64,000 bases of DNA from Candidatus Poribacteria bacterium (GTDB lineage: Bacteria > Poribacteria > WGA-4E > WGA-3G). Position numbers and translations under genes: made by a program. Shown piece after piece: positions 30,305-39,005 of the stretch; the stretch's first letter is position 1; each line of letters begins with the position of its first letter. Below the pieces are notes generated by a model. That model made no database searches and was not told the origin of the DNA. It saw nothing but the letters and a program-made list of their open reading frames with translations. The stretch covers positions 3,456,001-3,520,000 of the forward strand of contig OZ251518.1 in assembly GCA_965242965.1 (NCBI GenBank). Reading direction: 5' to 3'.

Positions 30305-30594
30305 GCAGGATTATCACGATTATCACGATTAGGAGCAGGATTTTCAAGATTTTCAAGATTTCACAGGATATGAGCAGGATTTACAAGATTTATCAAGATT
30401 AGCAAGATTATAGAGTCTGATGCATCAAACACCCCGTGGCCTGCCACAACCGCGCCGATGCACCAGAGACCTAATCCTGTGAAATCCTGTGAAATCCTGT
30501 AAATCCTGCTCCAAATCGTGAGAATCGTGAGAATCCTGCTCCTAATCTTGCTAAATCGTGAAAATCTTGAAAATCCTGCTCATATCCTGCTCAA
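30305..30594. repeat. Family C fold-back
   Basis: About 11 A(A/C/G)GATT units, TCTGATGCATC-core-GATGCACCAGA, then about 12 inverted AATC(C/G/T)TG units. Confidence 0.9.
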
Positions 30595-30602
30595 TTTTTC
30601 CC

Positions 30603-30631
30603 TTGACAATTATCCCCATTCATGTTATCAT
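30603..30631 (+). promoter_or_regulatory. sigma70 promoter giving a probably leaderless RM transcript
   Basis: TTGACA-17-TATCAT with ATG 7 nt downstream and no SD sequence. Confidence 0.6.
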
Positions 30632-30638
30632 ATCCTAC

Positions 30639-33600
30639 ATGAAACAATTAACCCTGAAACCACACCACAAACCGGTGCGCGAATACTACGCCACGCTGAA
30701 GGCATACGCCGCCCGCGATATCAAGCACGAAGGCGCAGTCAGCACGCCGTTCCAAGCACTGCTCCACGCCTGCGCGAAGCAAGTAGAGGCCACCCTCGTG
30801 CCGCAATACGCGGTCCGCACCGAAACCGGCACTCGGATTGTCATCGATGGCATGCTCCTCGATGCCTACGGGCTCCCCCTCGCCGCCTGCGAATTTAAAG
30901 ACGTTGACGACGATTTGCCGAAAGCCGTGCAAGAGAAATTCGCCGTCGGCTATCCCGACGATAACATCTTCTTCCAAACGCCAGAACGCGGGATTCTTTA
31001 CCAAAACGGGCAAAAAGTGCTTGACGCAGACCTCGGGGACCCGGGGCAATTATGCGACGCGCTTGAAAAGTTGTTCGCGAATCCGCACACGGCGATTGAA
31101 AATTGGCATGCCGCTGTCGCCGAATTCAAGGAGAAAGTGCCGGCACTCGGGGCGGAACTGACGCAGCGCATCGCCGCGGAGCGCGAGACGAACGCGGCGT
31201 ATCGCGATGCGTTCGCCGATTTCTATGCGCACTGCCGCGCCTCCATCAACCCGAACCTCTCGCAAGCCGCCGTGGAGGAGATGCTGACGCAACATATTTT
31301 GACAGAACGCACCTTCCGCACCGTTTTCGCCAATCCGGATTTCACGCGGCGGAATATCATCGCCCGCGAGATTGAAAACGTCATTGACGCGCTCACCTCG
31401 CAGGCATTTAGTCGGCACGAGTTCCTGGCAAGCCTCGATCCGTTCTATCTCGCCATTGAGCAGGCATCGCTGTTGTGCAAAGATTTTTCCCAGAAACAGC
31501 ACTTCCTGAACACCGTTTACGAGCAGTTTTTTCAAGGGTTTTCTGTCGCTGTGGCCGATACGCACGGCATCGTCTACACGCCGCAACCCCTCGTCGATTT
31601 CATGGTGAAGAGCGTCAATTATGTCCTCCAAGAAGAATTCGGCAAGACGGTATCCGATAGCGGCGTGCATCTCATCGATGCCTTTGTCGGCACCGGAAAC
31701 TTCATCGTCCGGCTGATGCGCGAGATCGATGGCCGAGCCTTGAAACGGAAATACCGCGAGGAACTGCATTGCAATGAAGTCCTCCTGCTGCCCTACTACA
31801 TCGCCAGCATGAACATTGAGCACGAATATTTTCAAGCGACGCAGTCCTACCTGCCGTTTGAGAAGATCTGCCTCGTGGACACTTTCGATACGTTTGATGT
31901 GCGCGATGCACCGAACCAGACCGGGCAGTTTGCCTATTTCTCGCAGGCGAATACCCTGCGCGTGGAGGAGCAGAAAGCCACACCGATGTTCGTCGTCATC
32001 GGAAATCCACCCTATAACGCCGGGCAGAAAAACGAGAATGACAATAACCCGAACCGCAAATATGAAGGCGTGGATGCGCGCGTGCGCGATACTTACGCCA
32101 AAGATTCTGTGGCGCAACGAAAAGGCGCGCTCTATGATCCGTATGTGAAATCCTATCGCTGGGGCACCGATAAACTCGGCATCGAGGGGCTCGTTGCTTT
32201 CGTCACGAACCGCTCCTTTATTGACGGCATCGCGTTTGACGGCATGCGCAAGCACCTCGCCCAAGATTTTGACACCCTCTATGTGCTGGATTTAGGCGGA
32301 AATATCCGCGCGGGCGACCCGGGCACCTCCAACGTCTTCGGCATCCAGGTCGGCGTGTGTATCACCATCTTGGTGAAAAAGCGAGACGCTTCGCAGAAAC
32401 CGGCCCGCATCCTCTACCACGGCGAAACCGCCAAGTGGGATGCCAGCCGCAAGATGGATTGGTTGAACGAACGCGAACACGTCGGCAATCTCACGTGGCA
32501 GGACATTCAACCCAACGAACGTCACATCTGGCTCACCGAGGGGCTCCGCGACGAATTCAACACCTTTCTCCCCATCGGCAGCAAGACGGTAAAGGCGGCG
32601 AAAGGCGCAGGCATCGGCACGATGTTTAAGACTTACAGCAACGGCGTGAAAACGGGCCGCGATGAATGGGCGATCAACTTCAACGAGGCCGCTCTCACGG
32701 CAAATCTGTCTCGGATGATGGAGTTCTACAACGCCGAAGTTGCGCGATGGCAGCAGCGCACTGATTTTGAGATACCTCTCAACAATTTTGTGAGTGCTGA
32801 CAACACCAAAATCAAGTGGGATGAAAGGCTCAAAGCGGAATTGAAAAGAGGCAACCTCGCTGCGTTCTCAGCAGCAAAGGTGCGCGATCATCTCTATCGG
32901 CCCTTTACCAAATCGAACCTCTATTTCGACAGGCAGATAGCTCATCGAGTCTCTCTGATGCCCTCCATTTTCCCGGTGCCTGAGACAGAGAACGAGAATC
33001 GCGTGATTTGCGTCAGCGGGATTGGCAGCGGCAAGCCGTTCCAAACGCTCATGACAGATTTGCTCCCATCGGTTGATATTCTTGAAAAAACGCATTGCTT
33101 TCCGTTCTACACCTACGCGGAGGATGGTTCGGAACGCCGTGAGAACATCACCGATTGGGCATTGGCGGCGTTCCGCGCGCACTACGGCGACGAAAGCATC
33201 ACGAAGTGGGACATCTTCAACTACACCTACGGCTTGTTGCATCATCCCGACTATCGCGAGACGTATGCCGATAATCTCAAATTAGATTTACCGCATATTC
33301 CGTTCGCGTCGGATTTCTGGGGGTTTGCGAAGGCGGGTGCGCAGTTGGCGGAGCTCCATGTCAATTATGAGTCGTCGCCGGAGTATGCGGGGTTGCAGCC
33401 TATTGAGAACCGCGAGCTTCCGATCGATTATCGGGTGTCAAAGAAGATGAAATTCTCGGCGGATAAAACGGCGTTGCGCTACAACGATTTCCTCACGATA
33501 GGCGGGATTCCGTCGTCGGCGTTTGCGTATCGGTTGGGTGCGTATTCGGCGTTGGAGTGGGTGGTGAATCAGTATCATGTGAAGACGCACAAACGGAGTC

Positions 33601-33722
33601 AGTTGCTCTCCGATCCGAACCGCGTTGCTGATGATGAATATATTGTTCGGCTTCTTGGGCAGGTGGTAGAGGTGAGTGTTCGGACGGTGGGTATTGTTGG
33701 GGGGTTGCCGGAGTTATTTTGA
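30639..33722 (+). CDS. Single-chain N6-adenine methyltransferase/restriction enzyme with Type ISP-like C-terminal specificity domain, no helicase
   Basis: N-terminal IDG...EFKD nuclease-like motif, GIVYTP, DAFVGTGNF, GNPPY, NGVKTGRDEW, YRPF, YTYGLLHHPDYR. Confidence 0.85.
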   Translation: MKQLTLKPHHKPVREYYATLKAYAARDIKHEGAVSTPFQALLHACAKQVEATLVPQYAVRTETGTRIVIDGMLLDAYGLPLAACEFKDVDDDLPKAVQEKFAVGYPDDNIFFQTPERGILYQNGQKVLDADLGDPGQLCDALEKLFANPHTAIENWHAAVAEFKEKVPALGAELTQRIAAERETNAAYRDAFADFYAHCRASINPNLSQAAVEEMLTQHILTERTFRTVFANPDFTRRNIIAREIENVIDALTSQAFSRHEFLASLDPFYLAIEQASLLCKDFSQKQHFLNTVYEQFFQGFSVAVADTHGIVYTPQPLVDFMVKSVNYVLQEEFGKTVSDSGVHLIDAFVGTGNFIVRLMREIDGRALKRKYREELHCNEVLLLPYYIASMNIEHEYFQATQSYLPFEKICLVDTFDTFDVRDAPNQTGQFAYFSQANTLRVEEQKATPMFVVIGNPPYNAGQKNENDNNPNRKYEGVDARVRDTYAKDSVAQRKGALYDPYVKSYRWGTDKLGIEGLVAFVTNRSFIDGIAFDGMRKHLAQDFDTLYVLDLGGNIRAGDPGTSNVFGIQVGVCITILVKKRDASQKPARILYHGETAKWDASRKMDWLNEREHVGNLTWQDIQPNERHIWLTEGLRDEFNTFLPIGSKTVKAAKGAGIGTMFKTYSNGVKTGRDEWAINFNEAALTANLSRMMEFYNAEVARWQQRTDFEIPLNNFVSADNTKIKWDERLKAELKRGNLAAFSAAKVRDHLYRPFTKSNLYFDRQIAHRVSLMPSIFPVPETENENRVICVSGIGSGKPFQTLMTDLLPSVDILEKTHCFPFYTYAEDGSERRENITDWALAAFRAHYGDESITKWDIFNYTYGLLHHPDYRETYADNLKLDLPHIPFASDFWGFAKAGAQLAELHVNYESSPEYAGLQPIENRELPIDYRVSKKMKFSADKTALRYNDFLTIGGIPSSAFAYRLGAYSALEWVVNQYHVKTHKRSQLLSDPNRVADDEYIVRLLGQVVEVSVRTVGIVGGLPELF

Positions 33723-35975: not shown

Positions 35976-36026
35976 TCGCGAGAAAAACAAAAATCTTGCA
36001 AAATTTCTCATTAAATGTTAAAATTC

Positions 36027-36992
36027 ATGGCACAACTAAAACAGCGAACCCATCTTGAATACTGGTTTGCCCTTGCATCCGTAGAAGGGCTCGGCGGCGT
36101 GCGGATTAGGCGGCTCATGACGCGGTTCGGGAACGTGGCGAACATTTTTGATGCAGAGCTCCCCGAAATCGCGCGCTTACCCTCTTTCAATCCGGTCTTG
36201 GCATCGCGGATACTCACCGTGGCGCAGAATTTTCCGGCATTACAAGAGCGGCTAGACGCGCTCAACAGCCAGCAGGTGGAGGTGCTTTGCCCGGAAGACG
36301 CGACATACCCAGCACAGCTTAAAGCAGTGCCGGATGCCCCGGCGATTCTGTGCAGAATCGGCACCCTCTCCCAAATCCACGAACGGTGCGTCTCTATTGT
36401 GGGAAGTCAGCAACCGAGCCCGGAAGGGGTTCAGGTGACGCTGGAGCTCGCCGTGAAGTTGGCGCAGGCCGGCGTTACCGTTGTCAGTGGACTCGCCACC
36501 GGCATTGATGCAACCGCGCACAACGGTGCCTTGGCGGGAGGCGGACGCACAGTCGGCGTGTTGGCAACCGATTTTAGTGCCGTCTACCCGTTGCGAAATC
36601 AAGACCTCGCCGCGAAAATCTACGAGACAGGATGCTTGTTCACCGAACATCCGTTTCCGACATCGCCATCTCCCGGGAACTTCGTGTTGCGGAATCGGAT
36701 TATCAGTGGGCTTTCAATGGCGACAATCGTCGTAGAGTCACAAAAAAGTGGTGGCGCGATGCATACCGCACGCTACGCGCGGCGGCAAGGAAGACACCTC
36801 TTCGCATGCCGGTGGAAAACGCAAGACGAACGCAGCGAAGGAACGCGGGAACTCATTAACACCGGTGCCATCCCTTTTTTGCCTAACGAACTTGACAAAG
36901 TCGTTGAAGACGTTACGCATCCGGAACAGTTGGAAGAGCAAAGTGCCATCGGTGCATCCGGCCAACAGATGGGGCTTTTTGATGCCGGATAA
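36027..36992 (+). CDS. dprA: DNA-processing protein DprA
   Basis: YPAQLKAVPDAP, SIVGS, VVSGLATGIDATAHNGAL, RNRIISGLS, SGGAMHTA. Confidence 0.92.
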   Translation: MAQLKQRTHLEYWFALASVEGLGGVRIRRLMTRFGNVANIFDAELPEIARLPSFNPVLASRILTVAQNFPALQERLDALNSQQVEVLCPEDATYPAQLKAVPDAPAILCRIGTLSQIHERCVSIVGSQQPSPEGVQVTLELAVKLAQAGVTVVSGLATGIDATAHNGALAGGGRTVGVLATDFSAVYPLRNQDLAAKIYETGCLFTEHPFPTSPSPGNFVLRNRIISGLSMATIVVESQKSGGAMHTARYARRQGRHLFACRWKTQDERSEGTRELINTGAIPFLPNELDKVVEDVTHPEQLEEQSAIGASGQQMGLFDAG

Positions 36993-37210
36993 CCTGATGT
37001 CCGCAGCGTTTTTTTCGTAAAATAAAACATTACAAAAAAAATCGCAAAAAAATTTGATTTTTTTTTGAAAATGTGGTATACTATATATGTCTATAGACGG
37101 CATTAGGGAAGACGTGTACCCTTTTTTGATTTCACAACGTTTAAGAAATGTGGTATACTCCGAAGAAAATAGCAGGTTTTCCTAGAAAATAGGAAAAATG
37201 AAGTTTTTTC

Positions 37211-37239
37211 TTGACAAAAACAACAAATTTTTGTAGAAT
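37211..37239 (+). promoter_or_regulatory. sigma70 promoter upstream of the long structured leader
   Basis: TTGACA-17-TAGAAT. Further TGTGGTATACT -10-like sites at ~37072 and ~37149. Confidence 0.7.
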
Positions 37240-37245
37240 TGCTTC

Positions 37246-37655
37246 ATTAAATCCAAATGCAGGCAGAACTTGCAGATTTCTCTTCGTAAAATTCTCTTGA
37301 AAAAGTTTGCAAACTTTGCTAAACTTTGGATAGACACTTTCGGGCGAGGCGCGATAATCTAGATGGTATGGGGGCAAAACCCCCGCTGACGAGCCGCCCT
37401 CGCGAGATTTGTTCTCAACGTGTCGGTCCGTCCGCTGGCACACCGCAGTGGACGACAAACGAAATAGCCCAACGTTACTCGACTTTATGAGGATATCATG
37501 ATTGGTTTCCATCGCCGCCGTTGCATTGCAAACAACAGCGGTAGCGAAACCAACCGTTCCCAACGGCGAGAGCCCGCGGGACAACACCGAAAGTTTTCTA
37601 GCGGCATCTATACCCGTAGCGCGCTGACAAAACGCGCTGTCTGGATAGGTGCATT
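37246..37655 (+). ncRNA. Putative large structured RNA or cis-regulatory leader, family not recognised
   Basis: Multiple nested helices, including long-range ACTTTCGG/CCGAAAGT and a GNRA-capped hairpin. No credible ORF, and unrelated to the repeat families. Confidence 0.6.
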
Positions 37656-37688
37656 CTGATTAACCTTAAATTTAAGGAGTTAACTCAA

Positions 37689-38339
37689 ATGAAAAAAATG
37701 TTTAGAACCTTGGCTTTATTGATGGCGGCACTGCTCGCTGTCTATGTGATTGGCTGCGGTGGCGACGACGACGCAGAAGAGACGGAAGCTGCACCGGCGG
37801 CATTCCAGAGTGCAACACCGCCTGGGGGCGAAGTCGCTGCGAACGGAACAATCTCGGTTACCTTTGACAATGCCCCCTCCGGCGTTTCGGTAACCGCGGG
37901 AACTGTTACCGTAGCCGGCAAGACGGCCACCATCACGGGGCCCTTCACCCCTGGTCCGCTCGCGCTGACCATTAACTGGGATGATGGGAGCCATACGCTC
38001 AACTACACCGTTACGGCACCGGATACCACCGCGCCGACGGTCACGGGTGGCACGGTGAGTGATGGCGACAAGGATGTCGATCCCGAGCAGATCAACACCG
38101 ATGCCATGATTGAGGTTACCTTCAGCGAGGATGTCACCGGAAGCATCGCCCTGCAGACAGAGGGCGGCGATGATGTCGGCTGGCTTGGCAAAGTCGAAGG
38201 CACCACAGGCACCTTGGAACTCGTCAAGGGTAAGGAAATCGGCAATGAGACTACCTACGTTATCGCAGGTAAAGTTTCTGACGCTGCCGGCAACGCCCTT
38301 GATGTCAGCATCACCTTTGTCACAAAAGGTAAAGAGTAA
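37689..38339 (+). CDS. Lipoprotein with Ig-like (Big_5/SbsA-type) domains
   Basis: Lipobox VIGC, DTTAPTV...IEVTFSE...TYVI...VSDAAGN. RBS AAGGAG. Confidence 0.8.
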   Translation: MKKMFRTLALLMAALLAVYVIGCGGDDDAEETEAAPAAFQSATPPGGEVAANGTISVTFDNAPSGVSVTAGTVTVAGKTATITGPFTPGPLALTINWDDGSHTLNYTVTAPDTTAPTVTGGTVSDGDKDVDPEQINTDAMIEVTFSEDVTGSIALQTEGGDDVGWLGKVEGTTGTLELVKGKEIGNETTYVIAGKVSDAAGNALDVSITFVTKGKE

Positions 38340-38362: not shown

Positions 38363-38398
38363 GGGCAGCGTATCTTTAAGATGCGCTGCCTTTTTTTA
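38363..38398 (+). terminator. Rho-independent terminator
   Basis: GGCAGCGTATCT-loop-AGATGCGCTGCC followed by T8. Confidence 0.85.
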
Positions 38399-38411
38399 TG
38401 CTCTTCAGTCC

Positions 38412-38900
38412 CGTAGGAGAGACCTCCTAGTCTCGATTCCCTGTCGTCGCGCCGTCCCGGTCTTGATTTCCCCGTAGCGCGGGGGCCTGTCCCCCGCGAT
38501 CGTTGGATTACACTTGCGCGAGAACGCTGGCGAGGGACAGGCCCTCGCCCTACGGTGAGGGCGGGCGTTTCTTATCGTAGCGCGGGGGCCTGTCCCCCGC
38601 GAGTGTTCGTCCCTCACAGCATGGCGAGGGACAGGCCCTCGCGCTACGGTGAAGGGGGCGTTTTTTTATCGTAGCGCGGGGGCCTGTCCCCCGCGATCGT
38701 TGGATTACACTTGCGCGAGAACGCTGGCGAGGGACAGGCCCTCGCGCTACGGTGAAGGCGGCGTTTTTTTTATCGTAGCGCGACGGCCCTCGGATGCCAT
38801 ACGCGCATCCGAGCGGGTTTCCCCCGCGAGCTCGCCCAGAAGGTTGCATCGAGACCGGGAGGGCTCTCCTACCGGAAAAAACGAGTTATGAAACACCCTC
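38412..38900. mobile_element. REP array ending in a family-E right TIR
   Basis: About 9 REP hairpins with an internal duplication, ending TTATGAAACACCCTC at 38886-38900. Confidence 0.75.
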
Positions 38901-38919
38901 ATTTTAATGCAAATTATTC

Positions 38920-39005
38920 TTGACAAAAAAAACGATTCACGTTAAAATCTACAATTAATAATTTATGAAAAAAGTTTGAACGGTTTTTGAAATAGGGTTG
39001 TCTAA
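38920..39005 (+). promoter_or_regulatory. sigma70-like promoter plus a possible ECF autoregulatory promoter
   Basis: TTGACA-17-TAAAAT at 38920, and GAAC-N18-GTCTA at 38978-39004. Confidence 0.5.

Follow-up and report, generated by a model that had tools for sequence, protein, structure and literature searches.

The locus described here raises the question of what is encoded by a long intergenic segment, able to pair with itself over most of its length, in the genome of a Candidatus Poribacteria bacterium. The window, the whole stretch of DNA that was analysed, comprises 64,000 nucleotides (nt) of contig OZ251518.1, and all coordinates refer to it. The segment lies between a DprA gene (36015 to 36992; Pfam DNA_processg_A, E value of 2e-63) and a 216-amino-acid (aa) open reading frame (ORF; 37689 to 38339, plus strand) for a lipoprotein with immunoglobulin-like (Ig-like) domains. 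A preliminary description had drawn an RNA at 37246 to 37655 and proposed a new riboswitch, ribozyme, or large noncoding RNA. The data are best explained if the RNA forms the 5' leader of an mRNA whose product, an Ig-like lipoprotein, is conserved and probably abundant; in this reading the leader is cis-regulatory and probably controls the amount of lipoprotein made.

Every stem listed in the preliminary description was located. Read from the sequence, the outermost 5' stem joins ATCCAAA (37251 to 37257) to TTTGGAT (37325 to 37331), and a domain-closing stem joins TAGACACTTTCGG (37331 to 37343) to CCGAAAGT (37587 to 37594) and TCTA (37597 to 37600). The enclosed domain holds the P2 stem (GCGAGG, 37344 to 37349, with CCTCGC, 37398 to 37403), the hairpin GGGGG-CAAAA-CCCCC (37370 to 37384), the stems CGTCCGCTG/CAGTGGACG (37429 to 37437 and 37446 to 37454) and TTGGTTTC/GAAACCAA (37502 to 37509 and 37546 to 37553), and the hairpin GGC-GAGA-GCC (37565 to 37574), while a last stem pairs GCATCTAT (37604 to 37611) with ATAGGTGC (37645 to 37652). 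All of these were present in the minimum free energy structure predicted by RNAfold for the plus strand of 37240 to 37690, at -155.1 kcal/mol against -122.4 ± 5.1 kcal/mol for shuffled sequences (n = 100; z = -6.41; 0/100 as good). The minus strand gave a z-score of -2.69, with 1/100 shuffles as good, and two relatives gave z-scores of -4.80 and -3.40. The region was also confirmed to be single copy in the 5.7-Mb genome.

The limits of the RNA required revision. The conserved unit begins near 37331 and ends at the start codon (~37688), a length of about 330 nt. The stem around two hairpins at 37251 to 37331 does fold in RNAfold, but it overlaps a promoter-like site (site D, below), is absent or different in other genera, where promoter boxes alone occupy the space, and is therefore genus specific rather than conserved. 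Judged by alignment, the first ~85 nt at the 5' end of the element as originally drawn are genus-specific promoter DNA outside the conserved RNA. From 5' to 3', the unit consists of the CUUUC strand, P2, UUCUCAA, P4, ACGAAAUAG with GACU, P6, P7, CCGAAAGU, a covarying hairpin, and a palindrome at the Shine-Dalgarno (SD) sequence.

The 5' strand of helix P1, ACTTTCGG (37336 to 37343), includes an invariant CTTTC and has two possible partners, one distal (37587 to 37594) and one proximal (GAGATT, 37404 to 37409). The P2 hairpin (37344 to 37403) carries a conserved loop motif, ATCCAATGGT in relatives, and its stem reads GGAAC/GTTCC in genus g2; the GGGGG/CCCCC insert in P2 and the GGC-GAGA-GCC hairpin were found only in the genus of the window (genomes G000 and G001). 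The junction TGTTCTCAACG (37410 to 37420), in which TTCTCAA was invariant in 67/67 sequences, is a candidate for the 5' strand of a helix P3 or for the 3' strand of a long 5' hairpin. The P4 hairpin (GGTCCGTCCGCTG ... CAGTGGACGAC, 37426 to 37457) is followed by ACGAAATAG (37459 to 37467), which was invariant in 67/67 rows of alignment A2 and occurs in the divergent g2 members too. The conserved ACTCGACTTTATGAGGATATCAT (37477 to 37499) contains a small hairpin (CTCG/TGAG), an invariant ACT within GACT, and the candidate 3' strand of P3 (GAGGATA). P6 is a two-part hairpin with an inner stem (TTGGTTTC ... GAAACCAA, 37502 to 37553), and P7 is a variable hairpin (GTTCCC ... GGGAC, 37556 to 37582) with a GAGA loop here, of variable length in alignments A1 and A2 and reduced or absent in g3, g4 (one of two), and g2. 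The 3' strand of P1, CCGAAAGT followed by TTTCTA (37587 to 37600), is complementary to 37336 to 37343. It is succeeded by a terminator-like hairpin (GCATCTAT ... ATAGGTGC, then conserved ATTCTGAT; 37604 to 37660) whose 3' flank reads AUU(C/U)UGAU in the family. Near the 3' end of the conserved unit, the palindrome CCTTAAATTTAAGG (37664 to 37679; CCUUAAAUUUAAGG) occludes the SD sequence AAGGAG (37674 to 37679). The A2 rows that were read retain some complement to TAAGG, a pairing that cannot covary because the SD sequence is invariant.

Covariation, which the preliminary description had put forward as a check in homologs, was counted on the RNAalifold consensus (80 pairs in 14 helices) of A2, an alignment of 67 distinct leaders made with MAFFT L-INS-i. 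Of the consensus cells, 91.9% were paired, compared with 39 to 48% when partners were slid. Two-sided changes were found in 252 cells against 96.5 ± 9 in shuffles, and 0/500 shuffles reached 252, although the aligned sequences are close kin in two clades and the shuffle figures overstate both support and independence, a point to be counted against the interpretation developed below. Compensatory changes inside hairpins were nevertheless evident by eye in the alignments, and five hairpins covaried: P2 (two-sided changes in 4/6 pairs), P4 (7/11), P6 (11/12, in helices 9 and 10), P7 (3/6), and the terminator-like hairpin before the ribosome-binding site (RBS; 5/6). In an all-against-all analysis of column covariation, the two-clade phylogeny dominated the signal, and the result was left unused. 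G-U pairs were frequent (for example, UG in 46/67 rows at columns 177 and 191 of A2); read from the opposite strand, each would become an A-C mismatch, so that they fit an RNA on the plus strand only. The unpaired motifs CUUUC, UUCUCAA, and ACGAAAUAG were invariant in 67/67 rows. Among 17 leaders (every fourth of the 67), no reading frame was conserved, the longest ORFs lying on different strands, in different frames, and with different lengths; for the ORFs that the window itself has in the leader region, no Pfam match reached the cut-off. By these comparative measures, the leader is a real conserved, covarying, structured noncoding RNA on the plus strand.

The RNA did not correspond to a catalogued family. 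A search of the whole 64-kb window with Rfam 15 (4227 models) at gathering thresholds gave 0 matches, as did 20 related loci (58,055 bases). The models include those for T-box, cobalamin, glmS, tmRNA, RNase P, and 6S RNAs, and the result agrees with the preliminary description, in which signatures of tmRNA, RNase P, T-box, cobalamin, and c-di-GMP RNAs were not seen. With the threshold relaxed to E ≤ 10 over 36950 to 37750, no match fell inside the conserved RNA and no ribozyme family scored; the 11 weak matches all ended at or before 37327, in the AT-rich promoter region. The T-box model did not score at the leader. If Poribacteria-1, a motif named in the preliminary description, is in Rfam 15, there is no match to it here. 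The literature search yielded no report under that name, nor of an RNA motif or a relevant riboswitch in Poribacteria. The main text of PMC5737381 contains neither "Poribacteria" nor "sponge," and its supplementary motif list may bear on novelty.

A covariance model, R1, built from the central 152 nt of the RNA, matched exactly once per genome in 99/103 genomes of family f1 and in 0/47 genomes of the order's other three families (f2 to f4). In a phylum-wide draw, it was found in 96/99 genomes of f1 versus 0/51 in eight other families. Similarly, BLASTN recovered the region in 18/24 other genomes of the same family versus 0/16 genomes of three sister families. A strict motif built from the invariant blocks was scanned against one genome each of 185,579 species and gave 65 loci, 64 with Candidatus or uncultured Poribacteria in the title and one recorded as "uncultured bacterium"; in metagenomes it gave 5 loci, of which 4 were genuine and 1 was a chance match with none of the other features. 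To judge from these searches, the leader represents a structured-RNA family that had not been catalogued before and that occurs in only one family of Poribacteria. The initial proposal has thus held insofar as it named a new structured RNA, given the covariation, the lack of an Rfam match, and the single copy; its functional alternatives are weighed below.

The association of the RNA with the lipoprotein gene was close. At 85 of 87 motif loci, AAGGAG-ATG and the same M..FRT...GCG lipoprotein signal peptide followed within ~220 to 300 nt; one of the two exceptions was cut at the end of the locus, and the other was a chance match. The leader RNA and the gene were present or missing together. The four f1 genomes without the RNA all lacked an orthologue like those in the rest of f1 (two had no match at E ≤ 1e-30, one had a 50% partial match, and one had 60% matches), and two of these four assemblies are only 73 to 78% complete. 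One RNA-less genome from the genus of the window, G002, is 94% complete in 4 contigs and also lacks a lipoprotein match at E ≤ 1e-30, which could reflect either true loss or a gap in the assembly. Only ~30 nt separate the terminator-like hairpin from the ATG. The RNA keeps its place ahead of the same gene and leaves too little space for a promoter upstream of the RBS, both of which suggest that it acts in cis as a leader. We put the probability that this is a genuine conserved RNA leader at roughly 0.9.

Families f2 to f4 retain the lipoprotein gene (46 to 49% identity) behind DprA, with a ~230-nt leader of their own. These leaders resemble the one in f1 in synteny (DprA, leader, lipoprotein), in a TTTACA-17-TAGACT promoter, in a GUUCUYG/CGAGRAC helix, and in a hairpin with U5 before the RBS. 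Otherwise, they are unrelated in sequence and lack ACGAAAUAG and the other invariant motifs; with filters off, R1 gave only E ≥ 1.1 on them. The f2 leader (L099, L100, and L120 to L128), ~250 nt upstream of the lipoprotein orthologue, has a conserved structure of its own, with a GAUGCUU...AAGCAUU hairpin, a GUUCUUG/CGAGGAC helix, and a hairpin followed by U5, and no Rfam match was found in the two f2 loci scanned (L099 and L100).

Upstream of the conserved unit, a promoter scan of the region found 5 sigma-70-like sites versus 1.2 ± 1.1 in shuffles, four of them in tandem. These four plus-strand sites, A to D, fall within 280 nt (37054 to 37325), and three of them are TG extended; those relatives that were examined had counterparts. 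Site A (TTGATT-17-TATACT, TG-extended -10; 37054 to 37082) has a TGTGGTATACT-type box at the same relative place in other genera, and a contig of sequencing run X17 starts at 37091. Site B (TTCACA-17-TATACT, TG extended; 37131 to 37159) reads TTGACA-16-TAAATT in relatives. Site C, the promoter of the preliminary description, was found as TTGACA-17-TAGAAT at 37211 to 37239, with 11/12 matches; in L009, from a g5 genome, it is TTGACA-17-TATAAT, a 12/12 match. Site D (TTGAAA-17-TAAACT, TG extended; 37297 to 37325) is the one retained, spacer included, among the related loci read. It is conserved as TTTACA-aagtttgcaatttttgc-TAAACT in A1 and A2 and corresponds to the single TTTACA-17-TAGACT promoter of f2 to f4. 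Its spacer in the window contains a perfect 16-bp palindrome, AAAGTTTGCAAACTTT (37304 to 37319), which could be an operator. Between sites C and D, a small hairpin, TGCAGGCAGAACTTGCA (37258 to 37274), with a T-rich tail was scored as terminator-like and was found in this genus only.

Evidence on expression came from sequencing runs. Run X16, a small run, carries the sequence of a relative, in which a 665-nt leader contig equivalent to 37123 to 37795 had a depth of 94.6 and bridged leader and ORF. The lipoprotein contigs had depths of 43 and 75, and the contigs of the flanking DprA and extracytoplasmic function (ECF) sigma factor genes had depths of 8.3 and 7.6. Such a roughly tenfold step between adjacent single-copy genes is as strong transcription of leader and ORF would give if X16 is RNA. 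Against this, the kind of run X16 is only guessed to be RNA and may be DNA, its contigs show neither ends nor strand, and none of the sequencing runs on record as RNA contains the stretch. Run X18 gave a 297-nt contig over 37347 to 37641 only, whose ends are without meaning because its coverage is sparse (depth of 3); cover in X17, X18, and X20 was sparse or confined to repeats, so that gaps in it are not informative. In a metatranscriptome study, three bacterial Ig-like domain genes have been described as highly transcribed in Poribacteria single amplified genome 3G (PMC5087111), and the present gene may or may not be among them.

The alignments suggested how such a leader might regulate. The sequences split into a main type (g1, g3, g4, and g5) and a g2 type. 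In the main type, the whole domain is closed by a helix between ACUUUCGG and the distal CCGAAAGU, and UGUUCUC pairs with GAGAAUA (P3). In the g2 type, the partner of the 5' domain-closing strand is instead GAAAGUU, immediately after P2, and the invariant CUCAAA is paired to UUUGGG, giving a long 5' hairpin that was paired in 25/25 g2 sequences, with C-G to U-A changes in its upper part. When the two folds were compared by constrained folding, either type was able to form the fold of the other. For six main-type sequences, the energies of the P1-distal and 5'-hairpin folds were -84.4/-80.3, -105.6/-101.8, -95.2/-88.8, -94.6/-94.3, -101.8/-93.7, and -89.7/-86.6 kcal/mol; in g2 the preference was reversed (-65.8/-72.2 kcal/mol). 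The two folds thus differ by 0.3 to 8.1 kcal/mol.

We propose, with odds somewhat better than even, that the leader acts as a two-state conformational switch. In one state, the invariant ACUUUC would close the whole domain through the distal CCGAAAGU (P1). In the alternative, ACUUUC would extend the long 5' hairpin through the GAAA(G)UU just after P2, and GUUUAG/UUUGGG would pair with the invariant CUCAA. The 3' strand of P1, freed or bound, would lie 4 to 9 nt from the terminator-like hairpin and near the helix formed by the SD sequence and its complement. From that position, whichever fold is adopted would determine how much read-through and/or lipoprotein translation takes place. The trigger could be a small ligand, an ion, a protein, or temperature.

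Several results weigh against this proposal. The distal P1 helix showed two-sided change in 0/9 pairs across the 67 rows of A2; its six CTTTCG/CGAAAG pairs were retained in 51 to 67 of the rows, and in all 67 at two pairs. P3 was 90% paired but had two-sided change in only 1/10 pairs, and the lower helix of the long 5' hairpin is invariant and so has no backing from covariation. In the central region, P3 has a rival in P5 (CCUACG/CGUAGG), which was 77.8% paired, with one pair unpaired in 35/67 cells. No consensus antiterminator was found by RNAalifold on truncated alignments, and without its 5' strand, the P1 3' strand just extends the terminator stem onto the U tract. The near absence of two-sided change in the long-range helices, the rivalry of P5 with P3, and the missing consensus antiterminator make the switch an inference. 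The last stem before the RBS, which the preliminary description had also listed, stood and covaries; with its U tract, it was scored as terminator-like in the relatives L009 and L015 (g5 and g2 genomes), whereas the window's own hairpin was not scored as a terminator and its U tract is weak. A pseudoknot or antiterminator in which GGUGU of the P2 loop would pair with ACACC in the 5' arm of the terminator-like hairpin was also considered. It was rejected because it failed to covary, loop variants such as GGAAU, AGUAU, and GGUAU being unmatched in the arm. Finally, a leader that is bound by a protein, or that does no more than stabilise the mRNA, would show the same pattern of one gene, one copy, and one bacterial family.

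Two features sought in riboswitches were found here, namely a covarying structured domain with invariant junction and loop nucleotides and a cis position in the 5' untranslated region (UTR). That the leader binds a small ligand is nonetheless a tentative idea, and the gene context, an Ig-like lipoprotein, suggests no ligand. It is equally speculative, though conceivable, that the leader represents a new, unusually large riboswitch-like class of sponge-associated Poribacteria that toggles between a closed multi-helix domain and a long 5' hairpin and so gates a surface lipoprotein. The closest comparison is with orphan riboswitch candidates and large structured leaders of the motif class treated in PMC5737381. 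Like them, this is a conserved multi-stem RNA in a 5' UTR, with covarying stems, invariant junction nucleotides, a downstream terminator-like hairpin, and an occluded RBS, found in a narrow range of lineages and with no ligand assigned. It differs in having no match in Rfam 15, in a domain of ~270 nt that exceeds most riboswitch aptamers, and in its tie to a single gene with one copy per genome. T-box leaders are comparable as multi-helix leaders of ~250 to 300 nt that end in a terminator hairpin right before the RBS and for which alternative pairing is the proposed mode of regulation. The Poribacteria leader departs from them in that the T-box model is silent, no antiterminator consensus is present, and the gene regulated encodes a lipoprotein rather than an aminoacyl-tRNA or amino acid function.

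The rival that survives best, though we consider it unlikely, is a passive leader, that is, a long structured 5' UTR that stabilises the mRNA of a very abundant envelope protein and tunes its translation without sensing anything. The E. coli ompA and lpp leaders are stabilising 5' UTRs of abundant envelope-protein mRNAs, and the present leader resembles them in being a long leader of a monocistronic, strongly expressed envelope gene with its own strong terminator. The four tandem strong promoter-like sites, the high conservation of the lipoprotein, the X16 depth of about 10 times that of neighbouring genes (should the guess of RNA hold), the ~230-nt leaders of different sequence before orthologues in other families, and the missing antiterminator all agree with this explanation. 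Of a mere stabiliser, however, one would not expect invariant nine- and seven-base motifs outside the covarying hairpins (candidates for pairing in P3 or the long 5' hairpin), nor five maintained hairpins and two near-isoenergetic global folds in both clades, and no protective hairpin is predicted at the 5' end. Compared with the ompA and lpp UTRs, the leader is also far longer and more elaborate, with invariant single-stranded motifs and two conserved alternative folds.

A stand-alone small RNA (sRNA) of ~300 nt appears improbable. It would be transcribed from its own strong promoters, end at the hairpin and U tract, and act in trans or bind a protein, with the lipoprotein expressed by read-through. 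The covarying terminator-like hairpin, scored as a terminator in L009 and L015, the strong promoter-like sites, and the X18 contig spanning just 37347 to 37641 would suit such an RNA. The ~30 nt between hairpin and RBS, however, leave no room for a separate promoter, the X16 contig joins leader and ORF at equal depth, and RNA and gene occur or go missing together; moreover, the X18 contig ends carry no meaning at a depth of 3, and the U tract is weak in this genome. A self-cleaving ribozyme or other catalytic RNA within the leader is very improbable: nothing recommends it beyond the size of the RNA, the invariant motifs, and a position ahead of one gene that recalls glmS, while no Rfam ribozyme family scored even at E ≤ 10 and no feature of a known ribozyme was seen. 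The suggestion that there is no RNA feature at all, and that conservation reflects DNA-level signals (operators and promoters) or a small protein-coding gene, draws on the 280 nt of upstream promoter DNA with its conserved spacers and the AAAGTTTGCAAACTTT palindrome at 37304 to 37319 but is barely credible given the compensatory changes in five hairpins, the frequent strand-specific G-U pairs, the fold z-scores that differ by strand, and the lack of a conserved ORF.

The leader of the lipoprotein mRNA thus remains the preferred interpretation, and the gene that it precedes was examined further. The lipoprotein (37689 to 38339, plus strand) has a signal peptide with the lipobox VIGC and two Ig-like domains (Big_5; E value of 1.7e-8 in a Pfam scan, with a CopC match below its cut-off); the N-terminal domain is weakly CopC-like. 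A strong intrinsic terminator after the ORF (38363 to 38391, plus strand; a 13-pair stem followed by T7) closes the monocistronic unit. Of 718 homologues found, the best 120 had 57 to 98% identity, and among these 120 the sole informative name was Ig-like domain-containing protein [Candidatus Poribacteria bacterium]. An NCBIfam scan of the lipoprotein gave no family above the cut-off, and a profile search with it gave no solved relative by sequence. Within f1, orthologues were 66 to 78% identical to it in g3 to g5 and 47 to 57% identical in g2. One genome of family f3 (G032:C1:335326-341054; L102 and L105 to L107) had 16 lipoprotein matches, including a tandem array of ~9 paralogues, versus one copy in most other genomes.

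Across f1, the locus maintained the order DprA, leader, lipoprotein, and ECF sigma factor. At 127 lipoprotein loci, DprA was seen in at least 97 and the sigma factor in at least 83, counts that are lower bounds because the loci are short. Downstream in the window, the lipoprotein gene is followed by a ~600-nt palindromic repeat block, the ECF sigma factor, a zf-HC2 anti-sigma factor, and a 1571-aa TPR protein. The block (38395 to 38975, between the lipoprotein terminator and the sigma factor gene) consists of ~95-nt units (TGGCGAGGGACAGGCCCTCGC...CGTAGCGCGGGGGCCTGTCCCCCGCGA) with 255 further matches in the same genome and with very high depth and many joints in four runs; it looks like a repetitive extragenic palindromic (REP) or miniature inverted-repeat transposable element (MITE)-like family. 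Further upstream, a 1054-aa ORF lies on the plus strand at 30558 to 33722.

Conserved regulatory RNAs are rare handles on the physiology of Poribacteria because these bacteria are uncultivated. The leader is notable for its size, its near-universality in one symbiont family, and the gene that it singles out, a 216-aa two-domain Ig-like lipoprotein behind four promoter-like sites. With at least 67 distinct sequences and a working covariance model, the material is enough for RNA family databases and for better annotation of these genomes. Were the leader to bind a protein or only stabilise its mRNA, it would still be a well-defined new RNA family. Should it prove to sense a ligand, it would be an additional large class of riboswitch and a lead to some signal that bears on the symbiosis, and if the proposed switch gates the lipoprotein, this surface protein may matter for life inside the sponge.

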